This document shows, piece after piece, positions 8,775 to 32,903 of a stretch of DNA of 56,249 bases. A program made the translations under genes and the position numbers. Each line of letters opens with the position of its first letter. Position 1 is the stretch's first letter. The stretch comes from a virus (Duplodnaviria; Caudoviricetes): the IMG/VR virus record IMGVR_UViG_3300031857_000228, positions 1 to 56,249 of that record. One strand, given 5' to 3'. A model generated the notes under the pieces. The model saw only the letters and a program-made list of their open reading frames with translations. It did no database searches and was not told where the DNA came from.

Positions 8775-9785
8775 ATGTCCGACAATCCGACCGTCATGGT
8801 GACGGTCTATGGCAAACCCAAGAAGAAGAAGACGAGCGATGTCCTCGCCGCGTTCCCGACTGCCTTGTGCATCGGGGTGCCGAGCGCCATCACGCTCGTC
8901 GCGCAGAACGAGCTGGGCTTCACCCCGGCGGTCCACCCCGAGCCCCCGCAGACGCTGCCCGAGCTGGTCGCGCTGCTCGACTACGTCAGCCGCACCGGCA
9001 TGGCGAAGCAGTACGGAGCCATCGTCATCGACGACGCCAGCCACATCTGCGACCGCAGCATGATGGCCTGGAACGAGGAGGCGCCGGCGGGGAAGAGCGG
9101 CAAGAAGGACAAGTTCTACGCCTTCCAGCAGCTCAACAAGTACCTGCTCATGCTGTCGGGCCTCTCCCGCCACATGGGTGTCCACCTCGCGTTCACCTTC
9201 CACGAGCGTATGCCCGGCACGAACGCCGACGGGTTCTTCTGCCCCGGCGGCCCGAACGTGCCGAGCCGCAATCAGGTGGAGACGCTCCCCAGCTGGTGCG
9301 ACATCAACGTGCGCGCGATGGTCGACTCGACCTACCCGGATCCCTGGTTTCCGGGCGTCTACTTCTGCGACCCCACGAACCCCGAGTGGGTGACGGGCGA
9401 CCGGACGGGCGTGTGCTGGGCGAAGACGCCGGGCAACCTCCGCGAGATCCTCCGGGCTTCGGCTGGCGGATACGCGCTCGCGCGCGTGCCGGGGCTGGAG
9501 TGGCAGGACGATCTGGCGGACGAGCTGGCCGCGCTCATCGTCGAGACGGGAGACATCAACGGCTCGCTGAAGAAAGTTTCCCAGTCGAATCCTCTGTTCT
9601 CGTCGGGTACGCCGCAGATTCATCTTCGGTGGGCTTGCCAGGACGGTATCGCTCGCGCTACGTTCCAGAAGCGCAAGGCGAGGAACCTCTTCGACCTCGC
9701 GTCCAAGGAAGAGCCGAAGAAGGGGAACGGCGTGCCTGTGCCTGTCCCCTCCGGTAGCTCGTCCTCGGCGACCACGAACAACTGA
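8775..9785 (+). CDS. Sak4/AAA_24-like ATPase (recombinase-associated)
   Basis: VYGKPKKKKTS (variant Walker A), IVIDD (Walker B), FTFHE and WCD; sits between the nuclease and an SSB-like gene. Confidence 0.7.
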   Translation: MSDNPTVMVTVYGKPKKKKTSDVLAAFPTALCIGVPSAITLVAQNELGFTPAVHPEPPQTLPELVALLDYVSRTGMAKQYGAIVIDDASHICDRSMMAWNEEAPAGKSGKKDKFYAFQQLNKYLLMLSGLSRHMGVHLAFTFHERMPGTNADGFFCPGGPNVPSRNQVETLPSWCDINVRAMVDSTYPDPWFPGVYFCDPTNPEWVTGDRTGVCWAKTPGNLREILRASAGGYALARVPGLEWQDDLADELAALIVETGDINGSLKKVSQSNPLFSSGTPQIHLRWACQDGIARATFQKRKARNLFDLASKEEPKKGNGVPVPVPSGSSSSATTNN

Positions 9786-9814
9786 CCATCACCACCAGTA
9801 CGACGGAGTTCATC

Positions 9815-10432
9815 ATGTCTTTCGCGATCAACGGCGCCCACTTCAAGGGCGTGTCCACCCTCGGCTCCTCTCAGCCCGAGGCCGGCTACTACGAGGTCGC
9901 CGGCCTCCAGGTCGAGCAGAAGGCCGGCGACAAGGCGGACGCCCGCCGCTTCCACGTCGAGTTCTCGAACGGCTTCAAGATGTTCGAGTTCGTCCACCTC
10001 CCGGTCGAGGGCCTCCCCGAGAAGAGCTTCAAGGGCCGCATCGCCGCGCTCAAGACCATCCTCGCCTCGTTCGGCTTCTCCAACGAGGAGATCGAGAACA
10101 ACGAGATCAGCGATGCGTGGTTCGTGACGACTACCAACGGCGGCCGCAAGGCGTTCGTCGAGTTCGTCCCCGGCCAGCAGGGCGTGCAGGGCTCCTACGC
10201 CCGCATCAACAAGTTCCTCACCAAGGAGCAGTACGAGAAGGCCAAGGCGTCGGGTGTCGTGCCGTCCGCGCGCGTCGAAGGCGGCGCGTCTCGCGCCTCC
10301 GCCCCGCCGGCCGTCGGCGCCATCCCCGCGGCGCCCTCCGCCGCCGTCGGCGCGCCGGTCCAGCCTGTGGCCCCGGCTCCCGCCGGCGGCCTGCGCCTCC
10401 CGCCGCCCCCCGCGGTGAGCGTCGCGCGCTAA
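9815..10432 (+). CDS. Putative single-stranded DNA-binding protein (DUF669-like)
   Basis: PEAGYY N-terminus, predicted beta core ending YARINKF, disordered tail; typical position after a Sak4-like gene. Confidence 0.55.
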   Translation: MSFAINGAHFKGVSTLGSSQPEAGYYEVAGLQVEQKAGDKADARRFHVEFSNGFKMFEFVHLPVEGLPEKSFKGRIAALKTILASFGFSNEEIENNEISDAWFVTTTNGGRKAFVEFVPGQQGVQGSYARINKFLTKEQYEKAKASGVVPSARVEGGASRASAPPAVGAIPAAPSAAVGAPVQPVAPAPAGGLRLPPPPAVSVAR

Positions 10433-10515
10433 GGCGGAGCGGAGCCCGCGCCGTGGGACCGAGGCGCGAATCGGCTCGCTGAATCGGGACGAGGTGGCGT
10501 ATCCACTTGCAGCAT

Positions 10516-10564
10516 CGCCCTGTCAAGTCTTGTACTTGGCAGGGCGTTCGCGCTTTGATATAGT
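10516..10564 (+). promoter_or_regulatory. Sigma70-type promoter overlapping a 13-bp inverted repeat
   Basis: TTGGCA(10536-10541)-17-TATAGT(10559-10564); IR cgccctgtcaagt/acttggcagggcg. Confidence 0.6.
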
Positions 10565-10585
10565 CGGCGTGACGAGAGGTATACG

Positions 10586-11398
10586 ATGGCCGCCGACTAC
10601 TACAGTACCAAGGACGCTCTGCGCCGCGAGGGCCAGAACGAGGCCGGAGCGCGGTTCCGCGAGATGGCCGGTGGCGCTGGCCCGGGCACCCCGTCGTACG
10701 CAGAGTCGCGTGAACCCATCGTGGACGCCACGGTGACGCCGGCTCCGGCGAAGTCGTTGAAGGCGGGCTTCTACCAAGGCGTCGGCGGGTACGAGTACAT
10801 CGTGGGTCCGCAGGGCGAGGTCACCATCGCCAACTCGCCCAACGCCCGAGGCATCGGGACCGTCGTGGATGTGGACAGCCCCTTCTACGACTTCATCGCC
10901 ACGGAGCTGGCTGGCAAGCAGGACAAGGTGTCGAGCATCCCCGCGCCTGTCGCCCAGCGGCTGGCGCAGGCGAAGGCGCCCAAGAAGGCCGGCCCCAAGG
11001 CGACGGTCACTCCCGGTGGCGTCGAGGGCATGGAGATCGAGCCGCCCATGACCCAGCCGGCGCCCGCGCCCAAGGTGGCCCCCCAGACCGCCGCTCCGCA
11101 GGCAACCGCGGCTTCCCCGCCCCCGGCGCGGCGCGATCCTGCGTCTGAGTTCGGGACCCGTGCGAACATCCGGGCAACGGTCGGCGGCGCCGTGGAAAAC
11201 TTCCTCGCCGATGAAGAGCGCCGGATGGCGTTCTCGCAGCGCACCGCGAGCGCGCGGGCGGACGCCGTAGCGGCGCTCGTGAAGAATGGCATGGATGCGT
11301 CGGACGCCCGACGGTTCGTCAACACCGCTATTGAGCGGGAAGGCGAGAAGGCGCTTCCGATGCTGGAAGCGCTGGGCGGAGCGCGGTTCACCAAGTAG
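10586..11398 (+). CDS. Hypothetical protein with DYYxxKDxLRR N-terminal motif
   Basis: GAGG RBS; 270 aa with a Pro/Ala linker. Confidence 0.7.
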   Translation: MAADYYSTKDALRREGQNEAGARFREMAGGAGPGTPSYAESREPIVDATVTPAPAKSLKAGFYQGVGGYEYIVGPQGEVTIANSPNARGIGTVVDVDSPFYDFIATELAGKQDKVSSIPAPVAQRLAQAKAPKKAGPKATVTPGGVEGMEIEPPMTQPAPAPKVAPQTAAPQATAASPPPARRDPASEFGTRANIRATVGGAVENFLADEERRMAFSQRTASARADAVAALVKNGMDASDARRFVNTAIEREGEKALPMLEALGGARFTK

Positions 11399-12446: not shown

Positions 12447-12477
12447 TTGACGCTGCGGTAGAGATACATCTACCGCA
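12447..12477 (+). promoter_or_regulatory. Operator/promoter element upstream of the MTase
   Basis: TTGACGCTGCGGTA plus a 9-bp IR tgcggtaga-gataca-tctaccgca that runs into the ATG; no SD sequence. Confidence 0.6.
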
Positions 12478-12914
12478 TGAACACCGACCTCATGTTCTCG
12501 TCGGCCACCGACCAGTGGGCCACGCCGCAGGCGTTCTTCGCTGAGTGGGACGCGGTCTTCAACTTCGAGCTGGATGTCTGCGCCGACGCCTCGAACGCGA
12601 AGTGCTGGCGGTTCTTCAGCGAGGCCGACAACGGCCTCTACCAGGACTGGGCGCCGAACCGCTGCTGGATGAACCCACCCTACGGACGCGAGATCCGTCG
12701 ATGGGTCCAGAAGGCGTACAACGAGAGCCTCCGCGGCGCGACGGTCGTGTGCCTCCTGCCGGCCCGGACCGACACGGCGTGGTGGCATGACTACATCCTG
12801 CCGCACGCGATGGTGACCTTCGTCCGGGGGCGCATCAAGTTCGGCGACTCGAAGAACGGTGCGCCGTTCCCGAGCGCGGTCGCCGTGTTCTATCCGCGGG
12901 CCTCGCAGCGATGA
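12477..12914 (+). CDS. Phage Dam-like N6-adenine DNA methyltransferase
   Basis: DQWATPQ, LDVCA, WMNPPY, LLPARTDT and RGRIKF motifs. Confidence 0.9.
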   Translation: MNTDLMFSSATDQWATPQAFFAEWDAVFNFELDVCADASNAKCWRFFSEADNGLYQDWAPNRCWMNPPYGREIRRWVQKAYNESLRGATVVCLLPARTDTAWWHDYILPHAMVTFVRGRIKFGDSKNGAPFPSAVAVFYPRASQR

Positions 12915-15745
12915 CCTACGATCCCCGGAAGTGTGGCGCACGCTGCGACGAGTGTCCGCTCGGCCCCTCGGGCAAGTTCCGCGAGGGCTACTGGCAGCCC
13001 GTGCCGCCGGAGCGCCACACCGGCGCGACCATCCTCGCGGTGGCGGAGATGCCGCACGCCGAAGACGCCAACAACGGCCGTCCGTTGTCGGGCCGCTCCG
13101 GGCAGGAATGGAACGCCGCGCTGCTGGCGCTCGGCAAGCGCCGCACGGACATCGACCTCACGCACGTCGTCGCCTGCTCCGCCGGCACGCAGCCGAACGC
13201 ATGGGAGAAGCTCAACAAGGCGCTCGACAAGGAGAACCGGCGTCTTCTTGCGCAGGGGCTCCCCGTCCTCCCCGACCCTATCATGTGCTGTCGGCCACGT
13301 CTACTGGCCGAGACGAACAACTACGAGAACATCCTTTCTCTCGGCAGAGTCGCCGCCAACTCGCTGACGGGAAAGGCGCAGTCCATCTTCTCGCTGCGGG
13401 GCGGCCCGGTGTGGGTCGACGAGAACTACGGCGCGCTTCTGGAGACGCCGCTCGCCGGCGACGCCGTGCCGGACGGCGCGGTCCGCAAGGTGTTCCCGAT
13501 GTTCCACCCCGGCTTCGTGCAGAAGGCTCCGGGGTGGCGGCACGTCCTGCACGCCGACCTCGGGAAGGCCCTCCGCTGGTTCTCTGGGGCGCTTCGGTGG
13601 ACCGAGCCGACCCGAACCTTCAACCCGTCGCCGGACGAGCTGGAAGCGTTCCTGGCGCGCCCTGCGCCCTTCTGGGCCTACGACTTGGAGACGGACGGCA
13701 TCGAGTCGCTCGTGTGCAAGGTGCGCTCCATCGCCATCGCGCACCCCGACCTCAACGCCGAGGGGCGCGCCATGCGCCCCGGCCAGGAGGAGGCCGTCCG
13801 CTGCGCGGTGATGGGCCTCAACATCCTGAGCGGCGACGGCTTCACCCGGTACTACGATCCCGCCGACGAGGCCCGCGTCCTCGACATCCTCCGGCGCTTC
13901 TTCCTCGACACGAGCAGGGTCAAGGTGGGCCACAACGCCGGCTACTACGACCGACAGGTCGTCGAGCAGTGGCTCGGCGTGACCCCGATGCCGATCATCG
14001 ACACGCTCTTCGCGGCAAGGTTCAGGGCGCCCGAGCTGCCAAAGGGGCTGAAGACGGTGGGCTCGGTCCTCACCGACGTCGACCGCTGGGAGACGACCGA
14101 GAAGGGCGAGAGCCTCGCGTTCGGGAATGTCGACGACTGGGACCGCCTCGCCTACAACTGCACCGACTCGTCGGTGAACGCGCGCATCGTCGTGCCGTTG
14201 ATGGACGCCGCAGAAGAGGTCGGCGCGTTCCGCGACCTGCCCGAGGCGCTGCGGCCCGTCGGCTGGGAGAACCGGCGCTGGGACCTGCACGAACTCGACC
14301 ACGCGACGCAGGATATGTGCGTCAACCTCCACAAGATCGGCGTGTACGTCGACCAGGAAGCACGCTTCAAGATGGAGGTGGAGACGCGGGCCTCGGTCGC
14401 GAAGCGCGAGAAGAACCTCTCCGAGCTGGCGCGTGCCGTCGGCGTCAGTCGGCTCGACCTCAAGAGCGCCGGCGCCAACGACGAGAGCGACGACACCGAG
14501 GGCGTGAAGCCGGGCAGCGCCGACCAGATCCGCGACCTGCTCTACGAGGAGTGGAAGCTCGGCATCCCGCCGAACATGGAGGCGCGCGACTTCTACACCA
14601 TGTCGGGGATGCCGGGCACCGGGGACAAGGTGCTCCGCGGCCACCTCGCCGGCGGCCGGCTGACGAAGGAGCAGGAGGCGTTCATCCGCGAGCTGCGGCT
14701 GTACCGCCGGGAGAAGAACAAGATCCTCGGCACCGTGCTGCTACCGCTGAACCTCGCGGCGCACGACCCGAAGAAGGGCGTCATCTGGCACGCCGACGGG
14801 CGCGTGCGCTCCACCTGGAACGCCCACGTCACGGCACCGGGGCGGCTGTCTTCCTCTGGTCCGAACCTTCAGAACATCGGCTCACGGAAGGGACAGGGCA
14901 AGCTGAAGACGCTCTTCGCAGCGCAGCCGGGCCACCTCTTCGTCGGCGCCGACCTCGACCAAGCGCATCTCCGCATCACGGCGAACTACTGGCGCATCCC
15001 GCTCCTGCTGGAGTGCTTCAGCGAGGGGAAGGATCCGCACAACACGCTCGCGTATCAGGTGTTCGGCGACAAGTTCAAGAACGCGGACGGCTGGGGCCCC
15101 GACGGCTTTAGCGTCTACAAGAAGCCGGGCGGCGGCATGGCGAAGGCGATGCGCGATGTCATGAAGACTTTTAGATATGCCAGTATTTACTGGGCAGATC
15201 CGATGACCGTGTGGCAAGTGCTCACGTCAACCGAGTCGGACGGCGGCGAGATGCCGTACCTCAACATGACCTCGAAAGAGGTCCGCCACTTCCACGAGAC
15301 ATGGCTCAAGAACGAGCCGGAGTGGATGGCCGCATGGGAGGTGATGCTCTCGATGTATCGGCACCAGGGCTACATGGAAGAGCCCGTGCTGGGACGGCGC
15401 TCGGGTGGCCTCTCCGACGGCAAGAAGAACGAGGTCGTGAACTTCCCCATCCTGGCCGCCGAGGCGTCGCTGATGCGGCTTGCGGAGCAGGCGCTCATCG
15501 CTGCCTACCCGTGGAACCTCGACGCGCGGACGGGCCTCATCCACCAGTGCCACGACTCCGTCGCGGTAGAGATCGAAGCTCCGCCGGGGCTGGAGAAGTG
15601 GAAGCCCGCGAAGGGGGAGGCGCTCCCCGCCGAGCTGGAGCGCCATCGGAAGCGCGTCGAGGAGTGCATGACGGTGCGCGTTCCTGGCTGGGAAGTGCCG
15701 CTCACCGCCGAGGCGAGCGTCGGCCGAAACCTCAAGGAGGCTTGA
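12911..15745 (+). CDS. polA: Family A DNA polymerase with N-terminal UDG-like domain and 3'-5' exonuclease
   Basis: UDG-like CxxCPL, AEMP, GRPLSG, THVVAC and FHPG; exonuclease YDLETDG, GHNAGYYD and YNCTD; polymerase GRLSSSGPNLQNI, ADLDQAHLR, RxxxKTFRYASIY and HDS. Confidence 0.92.
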   Translation: MTYDPRKCGARCDECPLGPSGKFREGYWQPVPPERHTGATILAVAEMPHAEDANNGRPLSGRSGQEWNAALLALGKRRTDIDLTHVVACSAGTQPNAWEKLNKALDKENRRLLAQGLPVLPDPIMCCRPRLLAETNNYENILSLGRVAANSLTGKAQSIFSLRGGPVWVDENYGALLETPLAGDAVPDGAVRKVFPMFHPGFVQKAPGWRHVLHADLGKALRWFSGALRWTEPTRTFNPSPDELEAFLARPAPFWAYDLETDGIESLVCKVRSIAIAHPDLNAEGRAMRPGQEEAVRCAVMGLNILSGDGFTRYYDPADEARVLDILRRFFLDTSRVKVGHNAGYYDRQVVEQWLGVTPMPIIDTLFAARFRAPELPKGLKTVGSVLTDVDRWETTEKGESLAFGNVDDWDRLAYNCTDSSVNARIVVPLMDAAEEVGAFRDLPEALRPVGWENRRWDLHELDHATQDMCVNLHKIGVYVDQEARFKMEVETRASVAKREKNLSELARAVGVSRLDLKSAGANDESDDTEGVKPGSADQIRDLLYEEWKLGIPPNMEARDFYTMSGMPGTGDKVLRGHLAGGRLTKEQEAFIRELRLYRREKNKILGTVLLPLNLAAHDPKKGVIWHADGRVRSTWNAHVTAPGRLSSSGPNLQNIGSRKGQGKLKTLFAAQPGHLFVGADLDQAHLRITANYWRIPLLLECFSEGKDPHNTLAYQVFGDKFKNADGWGPDGFSVYKKPGGGMAKAMRDVMKTFRYASIYWADPMTVWQVLTSTESDGGEMPYLNMTSKEVRHFHETWLKNEPEWMAAWEVMLSMYRHQGYMEEPVLGRRSGGLSDGKKNEVVNFPILAAEASLMRLAEQALIAAYPWNLDARTGLIHQCHDSVAVEIEAPPGLEKWKPAKGEALPAELERHRKRVEECMTVRVPGWEVPLTAEASVGRNLKEA

Positions 15746-19598: not shown

Positions 19599-20336
19599 AT
19601 GACAACCGCAGGGAAGTCTTGGTCCTTCGAGAAGATCGCGTCGGTTCAGGCGGCCCTGCGGTCGCGCCCCCTCTCCGCTGTCGCGGCGGAGATGGGGTGC
19701 TCGCCGGCGAACCTGCGCCGGCGGCTGGCCGTCGCGGACGACTCCTCCGGCAAGCAGGTCTACGAGCTTCGGCTCGCCGGGATGGAGTTCCGCGACATCG
19801 CCGTCGAGCTGGGCCTCCCGGTCGAACCCGCGACGGCGCGCCGGCTCTATATGCGCCTCGTGCGCTACTGCGAGCGGGCGGGCGTCGAGTACCCCCAGCC
19901 GCCAAAGCCGGCGACCAGCCCGCGCTCCTGGTTCAAGGAGTCGGACCTTCGCCGCATCGTCGCGCTGCTCGAAGAACGCGCAGCCCGGCTTGAGGCCACC
20001 GATAACTGGTGCATCTCGTTTACGCTATCCCTTTCTCTGAGAGAAGTGAAGACGGGAATCGCGGAGCTTCGACGCCGAGGAATCATCGCTTCTGGCATCG
20101 TGCCGACGACGGCCGGCGTCGAAGAAGCCACGCTCCGCCAGAACTCCGCGACCGCGATGGACCGCGTGCTGTGTGCGATCGTCGAGGCGCGGAAGCGCAA
20201 CGAGGATGAATCGCTCGCCACTCTGTGCGATAAGCTTCCCTTCAGCAGATCTACCATCAACCTGTCCATCGTCCGGCTTCGCGACGACGGCTACCTCTTG
20301 CGGCGCGGCCATCTCGCGCTTCGGAACGCACGATGA
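19599..20336 (+). CDS. Multi-HTH DNA-binding protein
   Basis: Several HTH-like segments: LSAVAAEMGCSPANLRRRL, FRDIAVELG and LATLCDKLPFSRSTINLSIVRL. Confidence 0.65.
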   Translation: MTTAGKSWSFEKIASVQAALRSRPLSAVAAEMGCSPANLRRRLAVADDSSGKQVYELRLAGMEFRDIAVELGLPVEPATARRLYMRLVRYCERAGVEYPQPPKPATSPRSWFKESDLRRIVALLEERAARLEATDNWCISFTLSLSLREVKTGIAELRRRGIIASGIVPTTAGVEEATLRQNSATAMDRVLCAIVEARKRNEDESLATLCDKLPFSRSTINLSIVRLRDDGYLLRRGHLALRNAR

Positions 20337-22480
20337 ACGACGAAGAACTCACCGAGCCCTCGGCCGCCGAAGAGAAGCCCGACACCGTGTCGAGCGGTCT
20401 CGACCTGCTGCGGGTCCTCCAGAACCAGCTCGCCTCGACGGAGAAGTCGAACCACCTCGCCGCATGGGGCGCCATCCAGCGGGCCGAGGCCCTCTCGGAC
20501 ATCGCGGATGCCTGGGTGGCTGACGAAGCCCAGGTGTCGAGTATGCTGGCCGTCATCGAGATGACCCCCGGACAGGTCACGCGGACGCGCGCGCTTCGCG
20601 CTGCGTTGAAGCGGCTCGTCGTCGAAAAGCGGCGCGCCTCGCTCGACCGTGTTATCGGTGTCGTGCAAGACAACACGCTCATCTCTCTCAGCACTGCGCT
20701 GGGGGCAGGTGCGCCGCCGCCTGCCTTGGTGGAGCCGGGACACCTCGACTCGTTCCGGGTGCCGCGCGGGTACATGATTGACCCGACCGGCGTCTTCAAG
20801 ATGTCCGTGCAGGCCGACGGCACGAGCAGCAGTCAGCGTGTGGCGACGGCGCCCATCTTCATCGTGGGCCGGACGCACGACGTTCTGCTCGGCACGGCGA
20901 AGCGCATCATCGTGTGGCGCACGCCGGCGGGCTGGACGATGCGCGCGGTGGACCGCGGGGTCGTGCTCAACAGCCAGAAGCTCATCGGGCTGGCGGACAT
21001 TGAGGTGCCGGTCACCTCGAACACCGCGGGCGCGCTCGTCGAGTGGCTCGCCGAGTTCGAGGCGGAGAATATGCACCGGTTCAACGCCTCTCAGGCGGCC
21101 AGCCGGATGGGCTGGATCCAGCAGGGCGCGGTGCGCGGGTTCCTCTTGCCCGAGGTCTTCTACACCATGTCGTCCGGGCTGGAGGACGTCGGCGTCGAGC
21201 TGACCCCGCCGCTCGGGATGGAGAGCGTCCTGGAGGGCTGGAAGCCCGCCGGATCGTGGGAGGAGTGGATTGAGGCGATGGAGCTGATGAAGCCCTTCAC
21301 CCCGATGTGGCTTGCGCTCTACGCTTCGGCTGCGGCTCCGTTCCTGGAGATCTTCGGGGCTCCGTCCTTCGTCGTGGACTTCAACGGCGAGACGTCGAGC
21401 GGCAAGACGACGGCGCTCCGGGTCGGCGCCTCGGTGTGGGGCCGCCCGTCGGACAACACGCCGACGGCGATGTACTCGTGGGACTCCACGAAGGTCTTCA
21501 TCGAGCGGCTGTGCGGGCTCCTCTGCAACCTGCCCGTCATCCTCGACGAGACGAAGCGCGCCAAGGATCCCAAGATCGTGCGGGATGTCGTCTACGACTT
21601 CGCCAACGGACAGGGCCGCGGACGCGGAGCCCCCGACGGAACGCGCCAGACGGCGTCCTGGCGCACGATCATGCTCACCTCGGGTGAGTCCGCGGCCACC
21701 TCGTTCTCGCAGGATGGCGGCACCCGTGCGCGCGTCCTGTCGCTGATGGGCAAACCGATGGGCACCGACATGGCAGTCGGCGGTCCGGCCGCCGAGGAGC
21801 TGACGTCCCTCATCGCGCACAACTACGGGCACCTCGGCCGGAAGGTCGTGGCGTACATCATCAGCGTCGCGGACCAGCACGACGAGCTGCGGCGCGTGTG
21901 GAAGGAGACGAAGGACCAGTACGCGGCGTTCGCGCGGACCGCGGTGTCTCGCCGGCACGCCGGCAACCTCGCCACGCTCCACGTCGTCTCGACGATCATC
22001 CATCACCTCGGCGTGCCGATGCCCTCCGACGACCCGATGGCGTTCGCGCTCGAAGCGCTGCATCGGCTGGAGGTCGAGCGCGACCGGCCGCACGCTGCGT
22101 TCATCGAGACGGTGTCGTGGTGCAGCGCGAACCAGAACCGCTTCTGGGGCCGGCACGAGTCGCGTGGCGACTCGCTCGCCATCCCGGCGCGTGGCTGGGC
22201 CGGCGCGTGGGAGAACAGCGACGACTGGAAGCACATCTCCATCCTGCCGTCGGTGCTTCGCGAGGTCGTCGAGGCGCAGGGGTTCCAGGTCGACGAGATC
22301 GTGGACCGGTGGACGGAGCGTGGCTGGATCATCTCGACGGAGCGTGTCGGCGCCGCGGAGGGCAAGGTCTCCCGCAGCCGGACGACCGTGTCGCGCATCA
22401 ACGGGGCGCCGATGCGGGTCTACCAGATCTCCCGTGCTGCTGTGGAGAACCATGTCCTCGACGCTACCATCGAGATCTAA
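20333..22480 (+). CDS. DUF927/Cch-like replicative helicase with no primase domain
   Basis: SRMGW, GETSSGKTT, PVILDE, YDFANGQGRGR, W..IMLTSGE and NYGHLG are characteristic DUF927 motifs. Confidence 0.85.
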   Translation: MNDEELTEPSAAEEKPDTVSSGLDLLRVLQNQLASTEKSNHLAAWGAIQRAEALSDIADAWVADEAQVSSMLAVIEMTPGQVTRTRALRAALKRLVVEKRRASLDRVIGVVQDNTLISLSTALGAGAPPPALVEPGHLDSFRVPRGYMIDPTGVFKMSVQADGTSSSQRVATAPIFIVGRTHDVLLGTAKRIIVWRTPAGWTMRAVDRGVVLNSQKLIGLADIEVPVTSNTAGALVEWLAEFEAENMHRFNASQAASRMGWIQQGAVRGFLLPEVFYTMSSGLEDVGVELTPPLGMESVLEGWKPAGSWEEWIEAMELMKPFTPMWLALYASAAAPFLEIFGAPSFVVDFNGETSSGKTTALRVGASVWGRPSDNTPTAMYSWDSTKVFIERLCGLLCNLPVILDETKRAKDPKIVRDVVYDFANGQGRGRGAPDGTRQTASWRTIMLTSGESAATSFSQDGGTRARVLSLMGKPMGTDMAVGGPAAEELTSLIAHNYGHLGRKVVAYIISVADQHDELRRVWKETKDQYAAFARTAVSRRHAGNLATLHVVSTIIHHLGVPMPSDDPMAFALEALHRLEVERDRPHAAFIETVSWCSANQNRFWGRHESRGDSLAIPARGWAGAWENSDDWKHISILPSVLREVVEAQGFQVDEIVDRWTERGWIISTERVGAAEGKVSRSRTTVSRINGAPMRVYQISRAAVENHVLDATIEI

Positions 22481-27080: not shown

Positions 27081-28526
27081 CTACGCTTCGGCGGCGCGCT
27101 TCACGAGCACCGGGAGGAGCGCCCCGGCGGCGCGCTCGACGCGCCAGCGCTGCGCCTCGTCGAGGAGGCCCTCGTGGGCGGCCCGCGTGACGGCGTTGAA
27201 GGCGTCCGCGAGGGTGTCGCCGGGCTCGGCGTCGAAGCCGCGGAGGAGCGCCTCGACGAGGGTGTCGCGCGCCACGTCGGCGTCCAGCTCGCCGCCCTTC
27301 ACGAGCGCCTTGAGCGCCTCGCGCGGGTCGACGTGCTTCTTCCCGCCGATGGCGACGGCGGACACCGGGGTGTCTCGGAGCACGCCCCACGAGTCGAGGA
27401 AGAACCGGGCGGCGTCGCCCGACTGCTCGACGAGGCCGCGCACGTCGCTCGCGATGCGGGCGAGGCCCACGCCGGTGAGATCGGTCGTGCGGCTCCCCTT
27501 GTGGACCCGGCGGAACGCCGTGTCGCCGAAGTCGACGGTCGTGCAGTTGATGCAGATGATCCGGGTGAAGCTGTTCCCGCCGATGTGGGCTCCGCCGCCC
27601 GCGTCGTTGGAGCGCCCGACGATCCCGGACTCGAACACGTCGCCGACGCTCGGGCGGAACGACTGCGGCGCGTGCCACGTCGCGCGGATCGTGACGTCCG
27701 TCGTCTCGCCGTTGTAGGCCACGGCGCCGCGGGGGTCCGGCAGGCCGAGCCCGTCGAGCGCCTCGACGTAGGTGCCGAGGACGCGGTCGCCGTCCATCGG
27801 CATATAGCTCGGGCTCACCGCGGCGAAGGCCTGCCAGTTGCCGCCGATGGTGCGCAGGCGGAGGCGCACCTCGCGGCTGTCGTCCTCGGGGTAGAACTCC
27901 GCGAGACGCTTGAGCTGGGCGTTCATCACCTCGGCCCGGTCGGCGGGGTCGAGGAGCGCGAGGAAGCTCCACGCGGAGGGGAACGCCTTCGGGAAGCGCT
28001 GCACGAGGCCCTTGAGGGCGAGGGGCTCCAGCGCGATGGGCGCCTTGCCCCGCGTCAGCGTGCCGTCGGGCAGCAGCCGCAGCTGCCGCGCGTCGCCGAG
28101 CTGGACGTCGCGCCGGCGCTCGGCGCGGATCTGATCGATGACCGCGCCGGCGGCGTCCCGGAACGCCGGGAGGTCGGCGTGGCGGCGGGCGAGGCTGCCG
28201 AACTTCGCGCGCCCCTCGGGCAGCATCTCGGTGCCGGCGGCGAACCAGGGGGGCGGCGCGGCGAAGCCGCGGGTGCCGAGGAAGGCCTCGGCGGCGCCGA
28301 TGCGGGCGGCGGCCGCCGCGTCGACGTCCACGCCGGGGCGGAGCGCCGGGGCGACGGGGGCCGCGACGACGGGCGCCGGGGCCGAGGCGGCCGGGGTGAC
28401 GGGCACGAGGCGCCCCGCGAAGCCGGCCGCCGCGTAGGCGGCCATCATCTCGAAGGCGAGGCCCTCGGTGACGCTGCCGTCGGGGCGGGTCCAGCGGGCG
28501 AAGGCGGGGGCGGTATTGTCGGTCAT
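27081..28526 (-). CDS. DUF932-like protein
   Basis: AAVSPSYMPMD, GDVFESGI..RSNDAG and RIICINC...HKG resemble DUF932; has its own promoter. Confidence 0.7.
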   Translation of the reverse strand: MTDNTAPAFARWTRPDGSVTEGLAFEMMAAYAAAGFAGRLVPVTPAASAPAPVVAAPVAPALRPGVDVDAAAAARIGAAEAFLGTRGFAAPPPWFAAGTEMLPEGRAKFGSLARRHADLPAFRDAAGAVIDQIRAERRRDVQLGDARQLRLLPDGTLTRGKAPIALEPLALKGLVQRFPKAFPSAWSFLALLDPADRAEVMNAQLKRLAEFYPEDDSREVRLRLRTIGGNWQAFAAVSPSYMPMDGDRVLGTYVEALDGLGLPDPRGAVAYNGETTDVTIRATWHAPQSFRPSVGDVFESGIVGRSNDAGGGAHIGGNSFTRIICINCTTVDFGDTAFRRVHKGSRTTDLTGVGLARIASDVRGLVEQSGDAARFFLDSWGVLRDTPVSAVAIGGKKHVDPREALKALVKGGELDADVARDTLVEALLRGFDAEPGDTLADAFNAVTRAAHEGLLDEAQRWRVERAAGALLPVLVKRAAEA

Positions 28527-28571
28527 GGCTGACTCCTGAGGGTGAACCGGCGCGGGGGCCGCCGGTGAGGG

Positions 28572-28600
28572 AAGTTACCGTGGCGGTAGGGGGGCGTCAA
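28572..28600 (-). promoter_or_regulatory. Sigma70-type promoter with a perfect operator in the spacer
   Basis: TTGACG-17-TAACTT on the minus strand; TACCGTGGCGGTA at 28576-28588. Confidence 0.75.
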
Positions 28601-28661
28601 GATCTTTCTGTTGGCTGCCGGGCAGCCGGGATCGGACCGGCCGCCGGGGCAGCAGAGCGCG

Positions 28662-28940
28662 CTACCTGCCGAGGAGGGCCTCGGGCTCGTCGCGCAGGGG
28701 CTCCGCGTGGCTCGGGGGCTCGTCGCGCTTGGTGAGCAGCCACACGGCGTCCTCGCGGGCGTCATGGTTGGCGCCCAGCTCTTCGGCCGGGCCGGCGAAG
28801 GGGTAGACGCCCACCCGGTGCAGCTCGTCGCCGTCGCGGAGCCACAGAGTGTAGGCGCCCGCGTCACCGTCGCGCCGGTAGTCGAGGAGGATCGGCAGCC
28901 CGTCGGGGGTCTCGCCGAGGTTGTAGCGGTACACGATCAT
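28662..28940 (-). CDS. Hypothetical protein
   Basis: GGAGCTGACC-ATG leader; MIVYRYNLGE... Confidence 0.7.
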   Translation of the reverse strand: MIVYRYNLGETPDGLPILLDYRRDGDAGAYTLWLRDGDELHRVGVYPFAGPAEELGANHDAREDAVWLLTKRDEPPSHAEPLRDEPEALLGR

Positions 28941-28942
28941 GG

Positions 28943-29101
28943 TCAGCTCCGGGGGGAGCGCCGGACGGGGAGCCCGGCGTAGGTTGCGACGGCGACACCG
29001 ACGCCGACGAGGTCGGCGGCGAACACGCCCACGAGGTAGGCGGAGTAGGTGGCGAGCAGGCCGACGGCGATGCCGATGGCGACGGCGAGACGGGGGCTCA
29101 C
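28943..29101 (-). CDS. 52-aa hydrophobic membrane protein (absent from the ORF track)
   Basis: GTGA overlap: MSPRLAVAIGIAVGLLATYSAYLVGVFAADLVGVGVAVATYAGLPVRRSPRS. Confidence 0.6.
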   Translation of the reverse strand: MSPRLAVAIGIAVGLLATYSAYLVGVFAADLVGVGVAVATYAGLPVRRSPRS

Positions 29102-29349
29102 GAGCGCACCCCGGCGCGCAGGGTGGCGAGATCCGCCTCGGCGGAACGCAGGCGCTCCGCGAGGGCGAGCAGGGCCGCGGCGGCCACCGCGGCGTCGACA
29201 TGGTGGTACTCCGACCAGATGTGGCGGAGGTCCCGAAGCACACAGGCGAGGTCGCCGCCGTCGTCCTCGAAGGCGGGGAAGGTGCGGAACCCGTCGGGCC
29301 CGTGGGCCCGCGCGGCGCGGCTGAGGGCGTTGTAGTCGAAGGGGGGCAT
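29098..29349 (-). CDS. Hypothetical protein
   Basis: GGAGTCCTGACC-ATG leader; MPPFDYNAL... Confidence 0.7.
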   Translation of the reverse strand: MPPFDYNALSRAARAHGPDGFRTFPAFEDDGGDLACVLRDLRHIWSEYHHVDAAVAAAALLALAERLRSAEADLATLRAGVRS

Positions 29350-29351
29350 GG

Positions 29352-29645
29352 TCAGGACTCCAGGGTGGTGGTGGCGGCGGAGGCGGCGGCGTCTACCGCG
29401 GCGAAGGCCGCGCGGGCGGCGGCGAGGGCGGCGGCGGCGTCGGTAAAGGCCGTGTGCGTGGACGTGCGCGACGCGGCGGCGGCGGCATACGCGGCGGCGG
29501 CGTCGTGCGCCGCGTCGAGGGCGGCGTCGAGGGCGGTGGCGGCGGCGGCGCGGTCGCCGTCCGCCAGCGCGGCGTAGGTAGCGGACGCCGCCGCGAGGGC
29601 GGCGGCGGCGGCCCGGTGGGCGCGGGCAGCGGGGGTGGAGAGCAT
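29352..29645 (-). CDS. Extremely Ala-rich helical protein
   Basis: Identical GGAGTCCTGACC-ATG leader; roughly half the residues are Ala. Confidence 0.6.
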   Translation of the reverse strand: MLSTPAARAHRAAAAALAAASATYAALADGDRAAAATALDAALDAAHDAAAAYAAAAASRTSTHTAFTDAAAALAAARAAFAAVDAAASAATTTLES

Positions 29646-29676
29646 GGTCAGGACTCCGGGGTGTCGGGGGTCGGGG

Positions 29677-29988
29677 TTAGAGGACCGAAGGGAGGGCCAG
29701 CTCGGGGGCCGGCGCGTAGCAGGACCGGGGAGCGACGAAGCGGCCCGAGGCCCCGCGGGGCGCGCGGAGGATCGTCGCCTCGTCGGCCACCGGCGGCAGG
29801 GGAACGAGGCCGGGGCGAACCCGGGCCACCGTCACGCGGAGGATCGGCGGCGCGGCGGCGGGCGCCACCTCGGCCACCTCGGCCACCTCGGCGGGCGCCA
29901 GCTCCTCGACCGGGAGGAGGGCGCCGATCGCGAGGGCGATCGGGAGGAGGATGAGCGGCAGGACGGCGAGGAGGGCGCAGGCGAGCAC
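29677..29988 (-). CDS. Putative membrane-anchored/secreted protein, first gene of the early operon
   Basis: GAGG RBS and GTG start; hydrophobic N-terminus; AEV triplet repeat. Confidence 0.5.
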   Translation of the reverse strand: MLACALLAVLPLILLPIALAIGALLPVEELAPAEVAEVAEVAPAAAPPILRVTVARVRPGLVPLPPVADEATILRAPRGASGRFVAPRSCYAPAPELALPSVL

Positions 29989-30012
29989 AGGGGGCCTCGG
30001 GGTGACGCAGGC

Positions 30013-30052
30013 AGGTTATGGTGGCCGGTGGAACCCGTCAACCGGTACGGTA
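30013..30052 (-). promoter_or_regulatory. Early leftward promoter with adjacent operator
   Basis: TTGACG(30041-30036)-17-TAACCT(30018-30013); AACCGGTACGGTA at 30040-30052. Confidence 0.75.
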
Positions 30053-30635
30053 TATGTTTCGACCGTGCCGCCTCGTGGAAGTAGGCGTAGAACCTGCGGC
30101 ATCTCGAGATTGGAGAAAGTTTCCGCCGCGGTAGAGTCGGCGAAAGTCGGCGTTACAACGATGGTAACGGAATCGGGCAGGTTGGAGGCCGGGAATCGGC
30201 GGCGTTACGCGTTACGCACGCCGCGGAGAGGGGGCCTATAGGAGCTATACGGAGAGATACACGATCAGGAATACGAGTAGAGGCTACACGTAGAGCCCCT
30301 ATACGGAGAGAGTGAGATCTCGATCTGTTGTGGGGTGTTGCAAGTCGCCGTGATTGTTGGGGGAACGAGTTACGGAGAAGAGCGATCATGGCTCATTCCG
30401 TGTAACACGGCGTTCAACCTGGGTTATTCGCAAGTCGGGGTTGACTCGTCAAGAGACGAAATCTACGGACGGTAGATCCGCATGGCGACGGTCGCGGCGA
30501 CGATAGAATGGTAAAGCGCCGGTCGAACGCCGATATACATGGATGATATACGGCCTGCTATCGAAAGTAGATATGCAACCGGTCGCGACGGCACGGGTCA
30601 ACGCAAACCGCGAGGTGCGTTTGACGCCTCCGGCT

Positions 30636-30671
30636 CGACTTGTTACGAGACGAACGTCTCGTAACAAGTCG
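30636..30671. repeat. Perfect 17-bp inverted repeat with a 2-nt spacer
   Basis: CGACTTGTTACGAGACG-AA-CGTCTCGTAACAAGTCG. Confidence 0.95.
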
Positions 30672-30810
30672 GCCCTCCGGCCGTGAGATTGTCGGCGTTG
30701 AACCGTGACGGGTCCGCCGGGCAGCTCCGCCGGCCCGCCGGTCCGCCGGGAGGGGGACGCGCCGCCGGTCCGGCCCGCCGGCAAGGGTGAATCGCAATAG
30801 AGCCGGCGTT

Positions 30811-30838
30811 GAAACTGCGTAGTCTTCTACGCAGTTTC
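30811..30838. repeat. Perfect 12-bp inverted repeat
   Basis: GAAACTGCGTAG-TCTT-CTACGCAGTTTC. Confidence 0.9.
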
Positions 30839-30909
30839 GACGGCGGCCCGCCCCGCGAGGGCCCCGGCCACCGGCGCCGCGCCGGATAGTCGCCGGCAGG
30901 ATCGCCGGA

Positions 30910-31240
30910 AAGGCTACTGGGAAGCCCGCCAGCGCGAAAGCGGGGGGCCGGCAGGGGTGGAGTAGCCCCCCGGCCCCGGAGCGGCTCTAATCGCGTCCCA
31001 GTGGCCTTCCCGCGCGTCGCCCCGCCGGGCGCCGGACCGCCGGCCGGACGGGGCGCCGGCCGCCGGCCGCCGGGGTGCCGGAGCTTCGGGGCGCCGGGTG
31101 CCAGGGAGTCAGGGCTCCGGGGCGCCGGGGCGCCGGACCGTCGGGAACCGCAATAGGAAGCCCGCCACGGGCAAAGCGGGGGCGCGGCAGGGGGTAGGCA
31201 TAGGGGCGCGCCCCGAACGGCTCTAATCGCTTCCCAGTGC
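30910..31240 (+). repeat. Two imperfect direct copies of a ~90-100 bp structured element
   Basis: Copies at 30910-31008 and 31150-31240 share GGAAGCCCGCCA...AAAGCGGGG...GGCAGGGG...CGGCTCTAATCGCnTCCCAGTG. Confidence 0.8.
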
Positions 31241-31253
31241 CCCTAAACGCGAA

Positions 31254-31283
31254 CGGCCCCCGATCCGGTTGGATCGGGGGCCG
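31254..31283 (-). terminator. Probable terminator hairpin downstream of the 31307-32206 gene
   Basis: Perfect 13-bp stem CGGCCCCCGATCC/GGATCGGGGGCCG, followed on the minus strand by TTCGCGTTT. Confidence 0.5.
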
Positions 31284-31306
31284 CGGGGAGCGGGGAGCGG
31301 GGAGCG

Positions 31307-32206
31307 CTACGCTTCGGGGATCATCTCAGAGACCGCATCGGCGGCCGCGGCCAGGAACGCGGCCGGGCCGCTCGCGATCCGGCGCCGCTTCGCGCCGATC
31401 GCACCGTGAAGCTTGACGTAGCGACCCGGCCGGGCCGCGTTGCGCGCCGCACCGTTGCACGCGACACACGCGACGCAGGGGATCGGGGCTTCGGGACGAT
31501 CCGCTTCACAGTGCGACGCGCCTACTTCGGCGAACGCGCGATCGTCCGCCGGGCTTTCGCTTGCGGCGAATACGCGCCATCCCTTCGAGCGGGCCCGCAG
31601 GTAGTCCGCGGGCGACGATACCGAAGCCATGAAATAGCACGACCATTCGACGGGAAGCGTGCGCCACGCCGCGGTGTAGCCCGTGTGTCCGCGCGCTTCG
31701 GCGAGGAGCGCGGCCCAAACTTCGAGCGGCGCGGCCGCGGGATCGCCCTCCATACCCGCCCGGATCCGGGCCCCCGCAAACGTACCAGGAACCCAGCCGA
31801 TCCGGCCGGCTTCCATCTCGCGACGGGCCGCACGCCATGCGGCGGACAACCGCGCCTTGTTCACGTAGCAGTCGCCCTTGCCGCCGCGCGGGATCGAACG
31901 GTGCCCGCAGTCGTCCGGGCACACGGCGCCGTCGGCGCCGGCCTTCCAGGCTTCGATCGGCGGACGATCCTGCCGCATGATCGACACCTGGACCATATCC
32001 CCGGTCTTACCGTTCTCGCTCGGCGCGTTGATCCGATGCGCCACAAGCATAATCGGCGTCGCGTCAAGCGTAGACGCGCCGGACCAAAGCACGATCGTGT
32101 CGTGAAGCTTCGGGGCGCGTGTTGCTTTGCGGACGGCGCGCCATGCGACGCGCCACGGGGCGATCGTGCGGGAACGGGCTTCGGGCTTGCGGACGAGTGC
32201 GGGCAC
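31307..32206 (-). CDS. Cys-rich conserved phage protein (gp88-like, radical-SAM-related candidate)
   Basis: GGAGTCAGCC-GTG start; NGKTGDM, CPDDC...CY, RAGMEGDP, TGYT, MASV, GWR, CxxCxxC and LHG motifs. Confidence 0.65.
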   Translation of the reverse strand: MPALVRKPEARSRTIAPWRVAWRAVRKATRAPKLHDTIVLWSGASTLDATPIMLVAHRINAPSENGKTGDMVQVSIMRQDRPPIEAWKAGADGAVCPDDCGHRSIPRGGKGDCYVNKARLSAAWRAARREMEAGRIGWVPGTFAGARIRAGMEGDPAAAPLEVWAALLAEARGHTGYTAAWRTLPVEWSCYFMASVSSPADYLRARSKGWRVFAASESPADDRAFAEVGASHCEADRPEAPIPCVACVACNGAARNAARPGRYVKLHGAIGAKRRRIASGPAAFLAAAADAVSEMIPEA

Positions 32207-32293
32207 GGCTGACTCCGAGGACCGGGGGAAGTGAACCGGTCCCGATCCACCTATACCGGGGCGGTTCAGCGCGCAAACAGAACCCTTCGATCT

Positions 32294-32317
32294 GCCGATC
32301 CGCCGATCCGCCGATCC
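32294..32317. repeat. (GCCGATCC)x3 tandem repeat
   Basis: Read directly; one substitution away from the 8-mer array at 32522. Confidence 0.85.
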
Positions 32318-32521
32318 GCCCGGAAAGCAATAGTCAATCATTCCGGGTAGTTAGCGCGATGTGCTCAATATTTGATATTGACGTGTCAATAGCGGTAGAA
32401 CGCACTGGGAGCGCATTAGAGCGCGATCGGCTTCGGGGGTAGGCCCCACTATGGCCGAAGGGCCGATCGTCGACTGGAGCGCTAAACTAACACTTTCGCA
32501 CTCGCGACGCTTCGAGCCGGT

Positions 32522-32617
32522 CCGGTCCGCCGGTCCGCCGGTCCGCCGGTCCGCCGGTCCGCCGGTCCGCCGGTCCGCCGGTCCGCCGGTCCGCCGGTCC
32601 GCCGGTCCGCCGGTCCG
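32522..32617. repeat. (CCGGTCCG)x12 perfect tandem repeat
   Basis: Twelve exact 8-bp units counted; non-coding. Confidence 0.95.
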
Positions 32618-32903
32618 GCCGGAGCTTCGGCGCCGGCGCTCGTGTCCGGCCGGAGCTGCAGGCCGGCGCTCCGGCGCTCGTGTCCGCCCGAACCGCCGGC
32701 GCGCCGGACCGCCCCGCCCCCGGCACCGGACCCCCCGGCGCCGCCGACCCGCCGCCGGCACCGCCGCGCCGCACCAACGACGAAGCGAGCGACGACGCCG
32801 AAACTATTGATGACAATCCATAAGGCACCAACCCGCCGTAGAGTCAATGGGGACCCCAAAGCGAAGAGCGTTCCCCGGACGCGAGCATATTTCTGAATCG
32901 CTA

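Follow-up and report, generated by a model that had tools for sequence, protein, structure and literature searches.

Glu710, which excludes ribonucleotides, and Gln849, which reads the minor groove, are usually regarded as fixed in the active site of Pol I (Klenow numbering), and it is this same pocket that is mutated when polymerases are engineered for RNA or XNA synthesis. What, then, is to be made of a phage gene in which both residues have been exchanged? The gene lies in the window analysed here, a stretch of 56,249 nucleotides (positions 1 to 56,249 of IMG/VR record IMGVR_UViG_3300031857_000228) from an uncultured high-GC phage. An earlier note, written from the sequence of the window, had described the product as a family A polymerase with a rewired active site, which might incorporate rNTPs, prime de novo or be adapted to a non-canonical base.

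A three-domain polymerase

The sole PolA found in this phage is the 944-aa product of the ORF at 12911-15745 on the plus strand, and joins a UDG-like domain to a 3'-5' exonuclease and a family A DNA polymerase. Its ATG overlaps the stop codon (ATGA) of the gene immediately upstream, which encodes a Dam-type N6-adenine DNA methyltransferase (12477..12914, plus strand; Pfam PF05869, E 2e-31); the window codes for two DNA methyltransferases. In Pfam, the 944-aa protein matches DNA_pol_A (PF00476) with 103.8 bits against a cut-off of 34.3 and UDG with 27.6 bits against one of 24.3, and its match to DNA_pol_A_exo1, at 19.9 bits, lies below the cut-off of 23.6. Among the PHROG families it is assigned to phrog_17, DNA polymerase (E 6.7e-61). 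The AlphaFold2 model of the protein (pLDDT 92.2, pTM 0.90) has the Klenow chain 8oo6_A as its top Foldseek match (E 1.2e-27, TMt 0.81), and alignment and model both place the palm domain at the C-terminal end. There is one PolA copy per genome in all five genomes compared, namely the window and four relatives that are 94-100% complete, and for polymerases of other families the comparison covered the ORFs of the window, by Pfam and PHROG profiles. On balance, the gene product is probably the phage's own replicative DNA polymerase.

The N-terminal domain (12911..13615, plus strand; approximately aa 1-235) resembles family-4 UDGs, with a phmmer match to the T. thermophilus enzyme 1ui0 at E 1.5e-8. 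Its motif A is degenerate, reading AEMPH versus GEGPG in T. thermophilus UDG, and Leu59 replaces a Phe; the Glu of motif A and the His-Pro of motif B are retained, the residues compared being those taken to be catalytic. The candidate Fe-S cysteines are C12 and C15 (105 of the 105 rows with an N-terminus), C89 and C127 (114/114 each) and C126 (113/114), and H199 is found in 90 of the 114 close rows. The proofreading exonuclease domain that follows (13659..14230, plus strand) carries D258-x-E260 as Exo I, N342...D347 as Exo II and Y415...D419 as Exo III. Residues D258, E260, D347, Y415 and D419 are each present in 114/114 close homologues and are invariant in the more diverse 81-row alignment A1, and all three exonuclease motifs are intact.

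Active-site residues

The polymerase motifs, all on the plus strand, were placed against E. coli Pol I, translated from NC_000913 and aligned by MAFFT, and with the outgroups by MAFFT L-INS-i over the C-terminal 440 aa, since hmmalign did not bring motifs B, 6 and C of these distant sequences into register with the family profile. The TGR motif (14837..14845) reads P643-G644-R645, such that the Arg (R668) is kept and the Thr (T666) replaced. Motif A (14951..14974, aa 681-688) reads DLDQAHLR, with the catalytic D681 kept and H686 (codon CAT, nt 14966-14968) at the position of the steric-gate Glu710; in phmmer comparisons with Klenow chains, ADLDQAHLRI pairs with ADYSQIELRI without gaps. Motif B, the O-helix, reads RDVMKTFRYASIYW (15152..15193, aa 748-761) and keeps R748, K752 and Y760, with Y756 at the Phe762 position. 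Motif 6, on helix Q, reads NFPILAAEAS (15440..15469, aa 844-853), which retains N844 and has L848 where Pol I has Gln849 and, one helical turn further on, a new Glu, E851, where Pol I has Ala852. Motif C (15551..15559, aa 881-883) reads HDS, keeping H881 and the catalytic D882, with S883 in place of Glu883. In other words, D705, R754, K758, Y766, N845, H881 and D882 of E. coli Pol I have identical counterparts (D681, R748, K752, Y760, N844, H881 and D882), and E710, F762, R841, Q849, A852 and E883 correspond to H686, Y756, N840, L848, E851 and S883. The model has L848 and E851 on one continuous helix (aa 839-865) and H686 at the start of another (685-693).

The four motifs that the earlier note had quoted thus all fall within the ORF, its quoted end at 15560 being one base beyond the last codon of HDS, and alignment to E. 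coli Pol I gives the substitutions E710->H, Q849->L, F762->Y and E883->S. Its remark that the enzyme looks active agrees with the retention of the catalytic Asp residues and of Arg, Lys and Tyr in motif B. Its list of changed positions was right for the gate His and for the Leu at 849, both of which belong to the linked block described below, and missed the TGR-motif Thr and the Glu at the Ala852 position.

How much of this is peculiar to the protein at hand? Among 114 close rows, i.e. the query and its homologues at 54-93% identity after 7 of 121 proteins with lengths outside 850-1000 aa were dropped, H686, E851 and D681 are found in 114/114 and L848, S883 and D882 in 113/114. Since these residues are near-invariant, H686 and the residues linked to it are, on the evidence of the alignment, neither a chance event nor a sequencing error, and the His at 710 and Leu at 849 do mark a conserved clade, which the earlier note had named as the test of its reading. 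Another 114/114 residue is A685, which replaces the gate's neighbour Ile709, a position with an influence on the fidelity of Taq and Klenow and on their use of rNTPs. D681, K752, Y760, D882 and R645 are invariant also in the 81 diverse relatives of alignment A1. Not every departure from Pol I is equally telling, though. The earlier note had counted HDS as part of the rewiring of this enzyme, but the same HDS occurs in Bacillus phage JL (SPO1-type), with HDA in N4 gp39 and HDY in Rctr197k, and because these lack the motif C Glu, that residue is no requirement in the wider family. Tyr at 762 is the T7 state. Judging from such comparisons, the loss of E883 and the Tyr at 762 are ordinary, and the unusual part lies elsewhere.

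A block of four residues

The changes that set this group apart are inherited together. Namely, in Klenow terms, the TGR Thr has become Pro, Val or Ile, E710 has become His, Q849 Leu or Ile, and A852 Glu. We compared 151 rows, the query and its best 150 representatives at 50% clustering, of which 34 lacked one of three columns; among the 117 complete ones, 70 carry the whole block, 47 carry none of it, and mixed forms number zero. The 70 His-type proteins have His, Leu (65) or Ile (5), and Glu, and the 47 Glu-type ones have Glu, Gln (46) or Ser (1), and a residue other than Glu. A scan of all 944 columns finds zero overlap between the two types in exactly four: 643, 686, 848 and 851. In column 643, the His-type has V in 48, P in 14 and I in 5 cases, and the Glu-type T in 30, S in 14 and A in 1. 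The outgroups have T or S in the TGR motif and E at the gate. By comparison, Glu883 is missing from motif C of the Glu-type sisters as well (A in 27 and S in 15 of the 47).

FastTree, run on 115 rows without columns 686, 848, 851 and 755, gives a tree with one change from Glu-type to His-type (support 92). A quick IQ-TREE tree of 66 rows (32 of the 70 His-type proteins and 30 of the 47 Glu-type ones, picked so that each subclade was represented, and 4 outgroups), from which columns 643, 686, 848 and 851 had been removed before inference, likewise gives the His-type as one clade (32/32, SH-aLRT 94) nested in a Glu-type grade. On these trees, the block arose once, as a derived state within the Glu/Gln-type grade. 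At the gate codon, going from Glu to His takes two nucleotide substitutions. Note, however, that with four changes on one branch the linkage could reflect shared history and not physical coupling; it is only the retention of the block over divergence to about 35% identity that argues for constraint. In the relatives P0002, P0011 and P0026, an intein sits within motif B, between A757 and residue 758, and relatives also carry an Exo II intein.

Helicase, primase and host

The polymerase is followed, 4.6 kb downstream, by a gene for a Cch-like DUF927 helicase with a C-terminal Cch HTH domain (20333..22480, plus strand; Pfam DUF927, E 2.9e-42, and HTH_56), present as one copy in 5/5 genomes and the only candidate for a replicative helicase or 'primase' in the window. 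Its PHROG label (phrog_8841, 'DNA primase/helicase') was rejected as a sign of a primase: Pfam gives only DUF927 and HTH_56, the N-terminal 199 aa have no Pfam match better than E 0.19, no primase catalytic domain was found in the protein, and searches for a recognisable primase (Prim-Pol, Toprim_2, DnaG zinc-ribbon) were negative in all five genomes.

In a phage collection, a DNA-level search gave no match and a protein search gave at most 28% identity in the polymerase domain; therefore, no cultured phage in that collection has this subfamily. A scan of species genomes, for which the tighter alignment A2 was used as A1 was too diverse, returned 3 loci, two of which are contigs of one Myxococcaceae MAG. 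A Marinobacter locus (L034) was discarded, as it holds an ordinary Pol I with ADYSQIELR and the pattern had matched a spurious reverse frame. Among 301 genomes of the order to which the MAG belongs, a prophage search found the gene in that MAG only. This offers a weak hint as to the host, with no sign of a prophage.

What the altered pocket may do

We consider it the likelier case, with fair confidence, that the pocket represents compensated repacking and not loss of function, and that the enzyme is a proofreading, primer-dependent dNTP replicase in which a His still acts as the gate. The polar cluster of Thr666, Glu710 and Gln849, which lies under the terminal base pair of the primer and the sugar of the incoming nucleotide, was swapped once as a block, with Thr666 going to Pro, Val or Ile, Glu710 to His and Gln849 to Leu or Ile, and with Ala852 giving way to a Glu. 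The imidazole of H686 would fill the space under C2' and keep rNTPs out, and E851 would replace the carboxylate of Glu710, pointing toward R645 (the Arg668 equivalent), Y760 or the His itself; in particular, we infer a contact joining H686, E851 and R645. The enzyme would stay a primer-dependent dNTP polymerase. A precedent for His in such a role is the strictly dNTP-selective pol III alpha, whose presumptive steric gate is a His according to PMC8485763. One direct contact would necessarily be lost, i.e. the minor-groove hydrogen bond from Gln849 to the template base, so that checking of the last base pair on the minor-groove side would probably be weaker and the enzyme would lean more on its intact exonuclease. 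What is more, since Gln849 and Arg841 (N840 here) are both template-contact residues, the pocket may select differently.

This last point leads to a possible, if rather doubtful, alternative, in which the four-residue switch alters substrate selection, relaxing the sugar check (toward rNMPs or 2'-modified nucleotides), the minor-groove check or both relative to the Glu/Gln-type enzymes. The Pol I passage of PMC10520511, which covers the residues equivalent to Q849, R668, E710 and D882, names E710 and Q849 among the conserved residues of substrate binding and catalysis and reports lowered fidelity upon mutation of E710 and N845. Moreover, Leu cannot form the hydrogen bond of Gln849, R841 has become Asn and Ile709 has become A685, and the block is strictly conserved and therefore under selection. 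Yet His, to go by H760 of pol III alpha, is bulky enough for a gate, the gate-assisting Y756 and Y760 are retained, the proofreading domain is intact, no RNase H-like, nucleotide-modification or RNR genes were found in the phages examined (RNR in 0/5 genomes), and the genomes (25 related viral loci) come out of ordinary metagenomes as normal assemblies. Only tentatively, then, would one call the His/Leu/Glu/(Pro, Val) pocket a natural alternative solution to nucleotide selection, with changed sugar or minor-groove checking. If it were one, measurable incorporation of rNMPs or 2'-modified nucleotides, or extension past template bases altered in the minor groove, would be examples of what to expect, and a large clade of uncultured phages would have replicase properties previously reached only by directed evolution. 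It is unlikely, by contrast, that the enzyme acts as its own primase, perhaps aided by a small partner protein, as does the CCPol-MP of SCCmec beside its Cch/Cch2 helicase. Such an ability would account for the missing primase, with matches to Prim-Pol (AEP), Toprim_2 and DnaG zinc-ribbon in 0/5 genomes and the Cch-like helicase as sole candidate, and PMC10061031 and PMC7581432 describe DUF927-type helicases without a primase domain, some of them adjoining Pol-MP pairs. However, many phages borrow the host's DnaG, and no MP-like partner was identified here. The earlier note's tie between His and de novo priming does not survive the comparison either: CCPol-MP, the one priming family A enzyme that has been characterised, keeps Glu710 and Phe762 (PMC7581432) and lacks most of the exonuclease that is complete here (also PMC10201439), and His is therefore no signature of priming.

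The earlier note further suggested that the enzyme may be adapted to a non-canonical base. Parallels would be DpoZ, which handles 2-aminoadenine, and SPO1/SP15-type enzymes, which handle modified thymine, and the two encoded methyltransferases might lend the idea some colour. We regard it as very unlikely: methylases act after replication, genes of the thymidylate-synthase/hydroxymethylase (ThyA) family, PurA/PurZ and TGT/DpdA number 0/5 across the genomes, the Phe that marks DpoZ at the Tyr766 position is absent (Y760 being kept), and this lineage has a degenerate UDG motif A. In addition, the positions that changed look onto the sugar and minor groove and not onto the major-groove edge, the site of most phage base modifications. 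Lastly, one could see in the changes at E710, Q849 and E883, residues usually called invariant, a polymerase domain that is dead or decaying, but this is extremely improbable. The two Asp residues that bind the metals are still in place, as are R748, K752 and Y760. All 114 close rows and all 70 His-type clusters (50% identity) have an open frame with strong conservation, each of the five genomes has a single PolA, and inteins persist in the catalytic motifs. N4 gp39, an experimentally characterised polymerase, also lacks E883.

Significance

Whichever of these holds, Glu710 and Gln849, together with two neighbours, have been replaced in a clade that is natural, abundant and diverse, and the new set has stayed unchanged however deeply its members have diverged; of the top 150 representative clusters (50% identity) in the search, 70, with the query included, are of the His-type. 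In the literature searched, no paper describing the four-residue block was found, nor was any description of a His at this gate position in family A, be it natural or engineered, though one might appear among the motif logos (Figure 3) of PMC10201439 or in supplementary material to the two UDG-PolA papers. The two sister types, told apart by a defined block of four residues, provide a ready comparison for sugar and minor-groove checking, and the His-type clade may supply new polymerase scaffolds. Finally, metagenome screens that rely on "invariant" motifs in viral PolA would misjudge this clade.

Comparison with known systems

The nearest relatives outside the clade are the Glu/Gln-type sisters (P0148, P0149, P0155), which have the same three-domain architecture, are 33-40% identical over the full length, and share with the query the Asn at the R841 position, the Tyr at 762 and an HDA or HDS motif C. 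They differ in having Thr or Ser in the TGR motif, in keeping Glu710 and Gln849, and in having Gly or Ala at position 852. The closest named record is the 982-aa PolA of Virus Rctr197k (KX853510), which matches the UDG-like region of P0001 through its N-terminal part. It is very distant (BLASTP 23.5% identity over about 1000 columns, E 3.9e-33), and while its motif C, HDY, is without Glu like that of the query, it has T, E, Q and A at the four block positions, unlike the query.

The N4-like UDG-PolAs, cluster #17 of Czernecki et al. 2023, with N4 gp39 as type, are described in PMC10201439 as phage replicases of 800-900 aa with a family-4 UDG-like domain, an exonuclease and PolA. The query has the N-terminal UDG-like domain, but departs from the cluster in sequence and at motif B position B3 (762), where the same paper gives Phe and the query has Tyr756. 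A loss of the UDG catalytic residues is another mark of the cluster, against which the query shows a degenerate motif A beside a retained Glu and His-Pro. N4 gp39 likewise lacks the Glu of motif C, keeps Glu710 and Gln849, unlike the query, and aligns with P0001 over 200 aa only (31.5% identity, E 2.6e-15), being the longest branch in the tree. When 41 window proteins were compared by tblastn with N4 positions 15000-45000, the polymerase was the only match.

The SPO1-like and SP15-like UDG-PolAs (SPO1, Bacillus phage JL, YerA41, phiLo) are also fusions of UDG, exonuclease and PolA, as described in PMC13697223. JL, at 21% identity, shares HDS at motif C with the query and, unlike it, keeps T, E and Q. 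According to PMC13697223, UDG catalytic residues are conserved in this group, UDG-coupled uracil excision was demonstrated for the SP15-like YerA41 and phiLo, several of the phages have modified T, and the SP15-like enzymes carry two large inserts plus a C-terminal domain of 80 aa. Genomes of the group are marked by T-modification genes or by a module of Pol X and ligase. In SPO1, moreover, a dUMP hydroxymethylase gene lies beside the polymerase gene. The query, in contrast, has a degenerate UDG motif A and no C-terminal domain past the palm, and a thymidylate-synthase-family gene is present in 0/5 genomes of its group. As for DpoZ, the query keeps Y760 and has no Phe at B4 (Klenow Y766), and PF00709 is found in 0/5 genomes; CCPol-MP is marked by a truncated exonuclease, a small OB-fold partner and an adjacent self-loading helicase, of which the query has the DUF927 helicase, 4.6 kb downstream, and, in place of the first, a complete exonuclease.

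[quoted passage not shown] The E. coli Pol I Klenow and Bst large fragments have the same fold (TMt about 0.8), the catalytic Asp pair, the R, K and Y of motif B, R668 and N845; Klenow has no UDG domain, and its T666, E710, Q849, R841 and E883 are all changed in the query. Within family A as a whole, then, this polymerase keeps the catalytic Asp residues, the TGR Arg and, in motif B, the Arg, Lys and Tyr, and has parted with the steric-gate Glu, the minor-groove Gln and the motif C Glu.

A linked block in the polymerase active site

The polymerase gene (12911-15745, plus strand) encodes a 944-aa protein, and the four motifs quoted in the earlier note all lie in this ORF at the positions given there. 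In Pfam, DNA_pol_A matches aa 532-942 (103.8 bits) and UDG matches aa 38-207 (27.6 bits); the exonuclease match stays below threshold. Exo I (D258/E260), Exo II (N342/D347) and Exo III (Y415/D419) are all complete. An AlphaFold2 model built with 81 relatives as input is confident (pLDDT 92.2, pTM 0.90), its top structural matches being Klenow and the Bst large fragment (TMt about 0.8).

Residue equivalences rest on two alignments, one made by phmmer against Klenow without gaps and the other by MAFFT with E. coli Pol I included. Klenow D705 (here D681), R754 (R748), K758 (K752), Y766 (Y760), N845 (N844), H881 (H881) and D882 (D882) are kept, and the changed positions are E710 (H686), F762 (Y756), R841 (N840), Q849 (L848), A852 (E851) and E883 (S883). 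Tyr at position 762 is the state of T7 polymerase, and Asn at the R841 position is common to the entire subfamily. Motif C, read as HDS, is not a special change either, its Glu being absent elsewhere too: the polymerase of Bacillus phage JL (SPO1-type) has the same HDS, N4 gp39 has HDA, Rctr197k has HDY, and the sister polymerases that keep Glu710 have HDA or HDS. The codons of His686 (CAT, 14966-14968) and Tyr756 (TAT, 15176-15178) end in A or T; third positions across the gene are 91% G+C.

What distinguishes this polymerase is a linked block at residues 643, 686, 848 and 851. An exhaustive HMMER search gave 465 proteins at E <= 1e-30, and the query was aligned with the best 150 representatives (50% clusters), making 151 rows, 34 of which, owing to truncation or inteins, have no residue in at least one of columns 686, 848 and 851. 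The 117 complete rows split cleanly in two: 70 are His-type, combining His with Leu (65) or Ile (5) and with Glu, and 47 are Glu-type, combining Glu with Gln (46) or Ser (1) and a non-acidic residue. When every column was scanned, exactly four showed zero overlap between the types, the fourth being column 643, the Thr of the TGR motif (His-type V 48, P 14, I 5; Glu-type T 30, S 14, A 1); columns 802, 805, 699, 713 and 755 are weaker partners.

Two insertions were seen among the relatives. In P0002, P0011 and P0026 (loci L007, L022, L029 and L031), an intein of roughly 310 aa with an HNH_3 endonuclease domain interrupts motif B directly after the equivalent of window Ala757 (aa 757/758, nt about 15181); it begins with Cys and ends in His-Asn followed by Cys. 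In P0006 (loci L033, L036 and L037), a second, intein-like insertion of about 370 aa, beginning with Cys and ending in Lys-Asn followed by Cys, splits Exo II directly after the Asn of GHN (equivalent to window aa 342/343).

Origin of the block

Both trees were built with the trait columns taken out. With FastTree (115 rows), a single change explains the block (support 92). For IQ-TREE, 66 rows were used: 32 of the His-type and 30 of the Glu-type, hand-picked so that every subclade is represented, plus four outgroups. His710 and Leu849 do mark a conserved clade, the check that the earlier note had proposed. In the IQ-TREE tree, every His-type row falls in one clade (SH-aLRT 94, from a quick search without bootstraps in which N4 and Rctr197k are long branches), nested among Glu-type rows. 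The outgroups read T/S at 643 and E at 686. On these trees the block is therefore derived; it arose a single time and was retained through divergence to about 35% identity. Glu to His alone takes two nucleotide changes, and no intermediate between the types was seen among the query and its best 150 representatives. A literature search of article text found no paper naming His at the E710 position.

Possible function of the altered pocket

In a review of Bst polymerase (PMC10520511), the equivalents of Q849, R668, E710 and D882 are described as close together and interacting electrostatically, with R668 and Q849 hydrogen-bonding the terminal base pair. In our model, H686 begins the helix following the motif A strand, and a single long helix carries both L848 and E851, whose spacing of three residues puts them on the same face. 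The conserved Arg would have lost its surrounding polar cluster (Thr, Glu, Gln) in exchange for a hydrophobic pair and His, and the carboxylate would now come from helix Q instead of the motif A side. A His can act as a steric gate, the presumptive example being H760 of pol III alpha (PMC8485763).

Adaptation to a non-canonical base, as the earlier note proposed, finds no counterpart in gene content: in the five genomes surveyed (the window plus four relatives with a completeness of 94-100%), genes of the thymidylate-synthase/hydroxymethylase family, PurA/PurZ and TGT/DpdA are all absent, as is ribonucleotide reductase. PolA and a DUF927 helicase are present in all five, one copy each. As for de novo priming, Prim-Pol (AEP), Toprim_2 and DnaG zinc-ribbon domains are each absent from all five genomes, which recalls the SCCmec CCPol-MP primase; however, the polymerase of that system, as described in PMC7581432 and PMC10061031, retains Glu710 and Phe762 and is without most of the exonuclease. 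The sole primase candidate is the Cch-like DUF927 helicase (20333-22480), whose label "primase/helicase" is a PHROG name only; Pfam finds just DUF927 and a Cch HTH domain, and no domain in the N-terminal 199 aa.

Genome setting and hosts

The record (56,249 bp, 80% estimated completeness, G+C 65-78%) carries portal, large terminase, major head protein and SLT lysin genes, and a replication block of SNF2 helicase, PD-(D/E)XK nuclease, Sak4-like annealing protein, Dam methylase, polymerase, DUF3310 protein, SbcC-like ATPase and DUF927 helicase; the polymerase start overlaps the Dam stop codon. No SSB was recognised across the window. The Sak4-like gene is followed by two ORFs without a family match (9815-10432 and 10586-11398; region 8775-11398), at a place equivalent to that of the SSB gene in N4. 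Positions 28500-32800 show G+C up to 77.6%, strong GC skew and few well-coded ORFs. G+C-rich tandem repeats are numerous there, among them CCGGTCCG x12.5 (32522-32622, 98% matches) and CGCCGGGG x14.8 (31023-31136).

The clade spans different hosts, since G+C is 63-68% in close relatives (81-93% identity) and 51-56% in those at 57-59% identity, and the Tara marine data contribute some of its members. The sole host hint, a weak one, is a Myxococcaceae MAG with the gene on two contigs (L032, L033), which represent two different phage relatives whose polymerases share 83% and 92% identity with that of the window; one of the two contigs, at 70 kb, is as large as a complete phage genome. The gene occurs in none of 300 other genomes of the order.

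Relation to known UDG-PolA fusions

The enzyme is a UDG-PolA fusion, a kind of protein known from two papers (Czernecki et al. 2023, PMC10201439; Missoury et al. 2026, PMC13697223). In its UDG-like domain (12911-13615), motif A is degenerate (AEMPH versus GEGPG in T. thermophilus UDG) and Leu59 stands where that enzyme has Phe; His-Pro of motif B is retained and four or five cysteines are strictly conserved. Because the motif A consensus of the wider subfamily is still GEAPG, the domain may be outlasting its glycosylase activity in this lineage. Within the polymerase domain, identity to the query is at most 28% for any record of the phage collection. The polymerase falls in none of the groups of those papers (N4-like, SPO1-like and SP15-like); by BLASTP, its identity is 31.5% over 200 aa to N4 gp39, 23.5% to the Rctr197k polymerase and 21% to that of JL.
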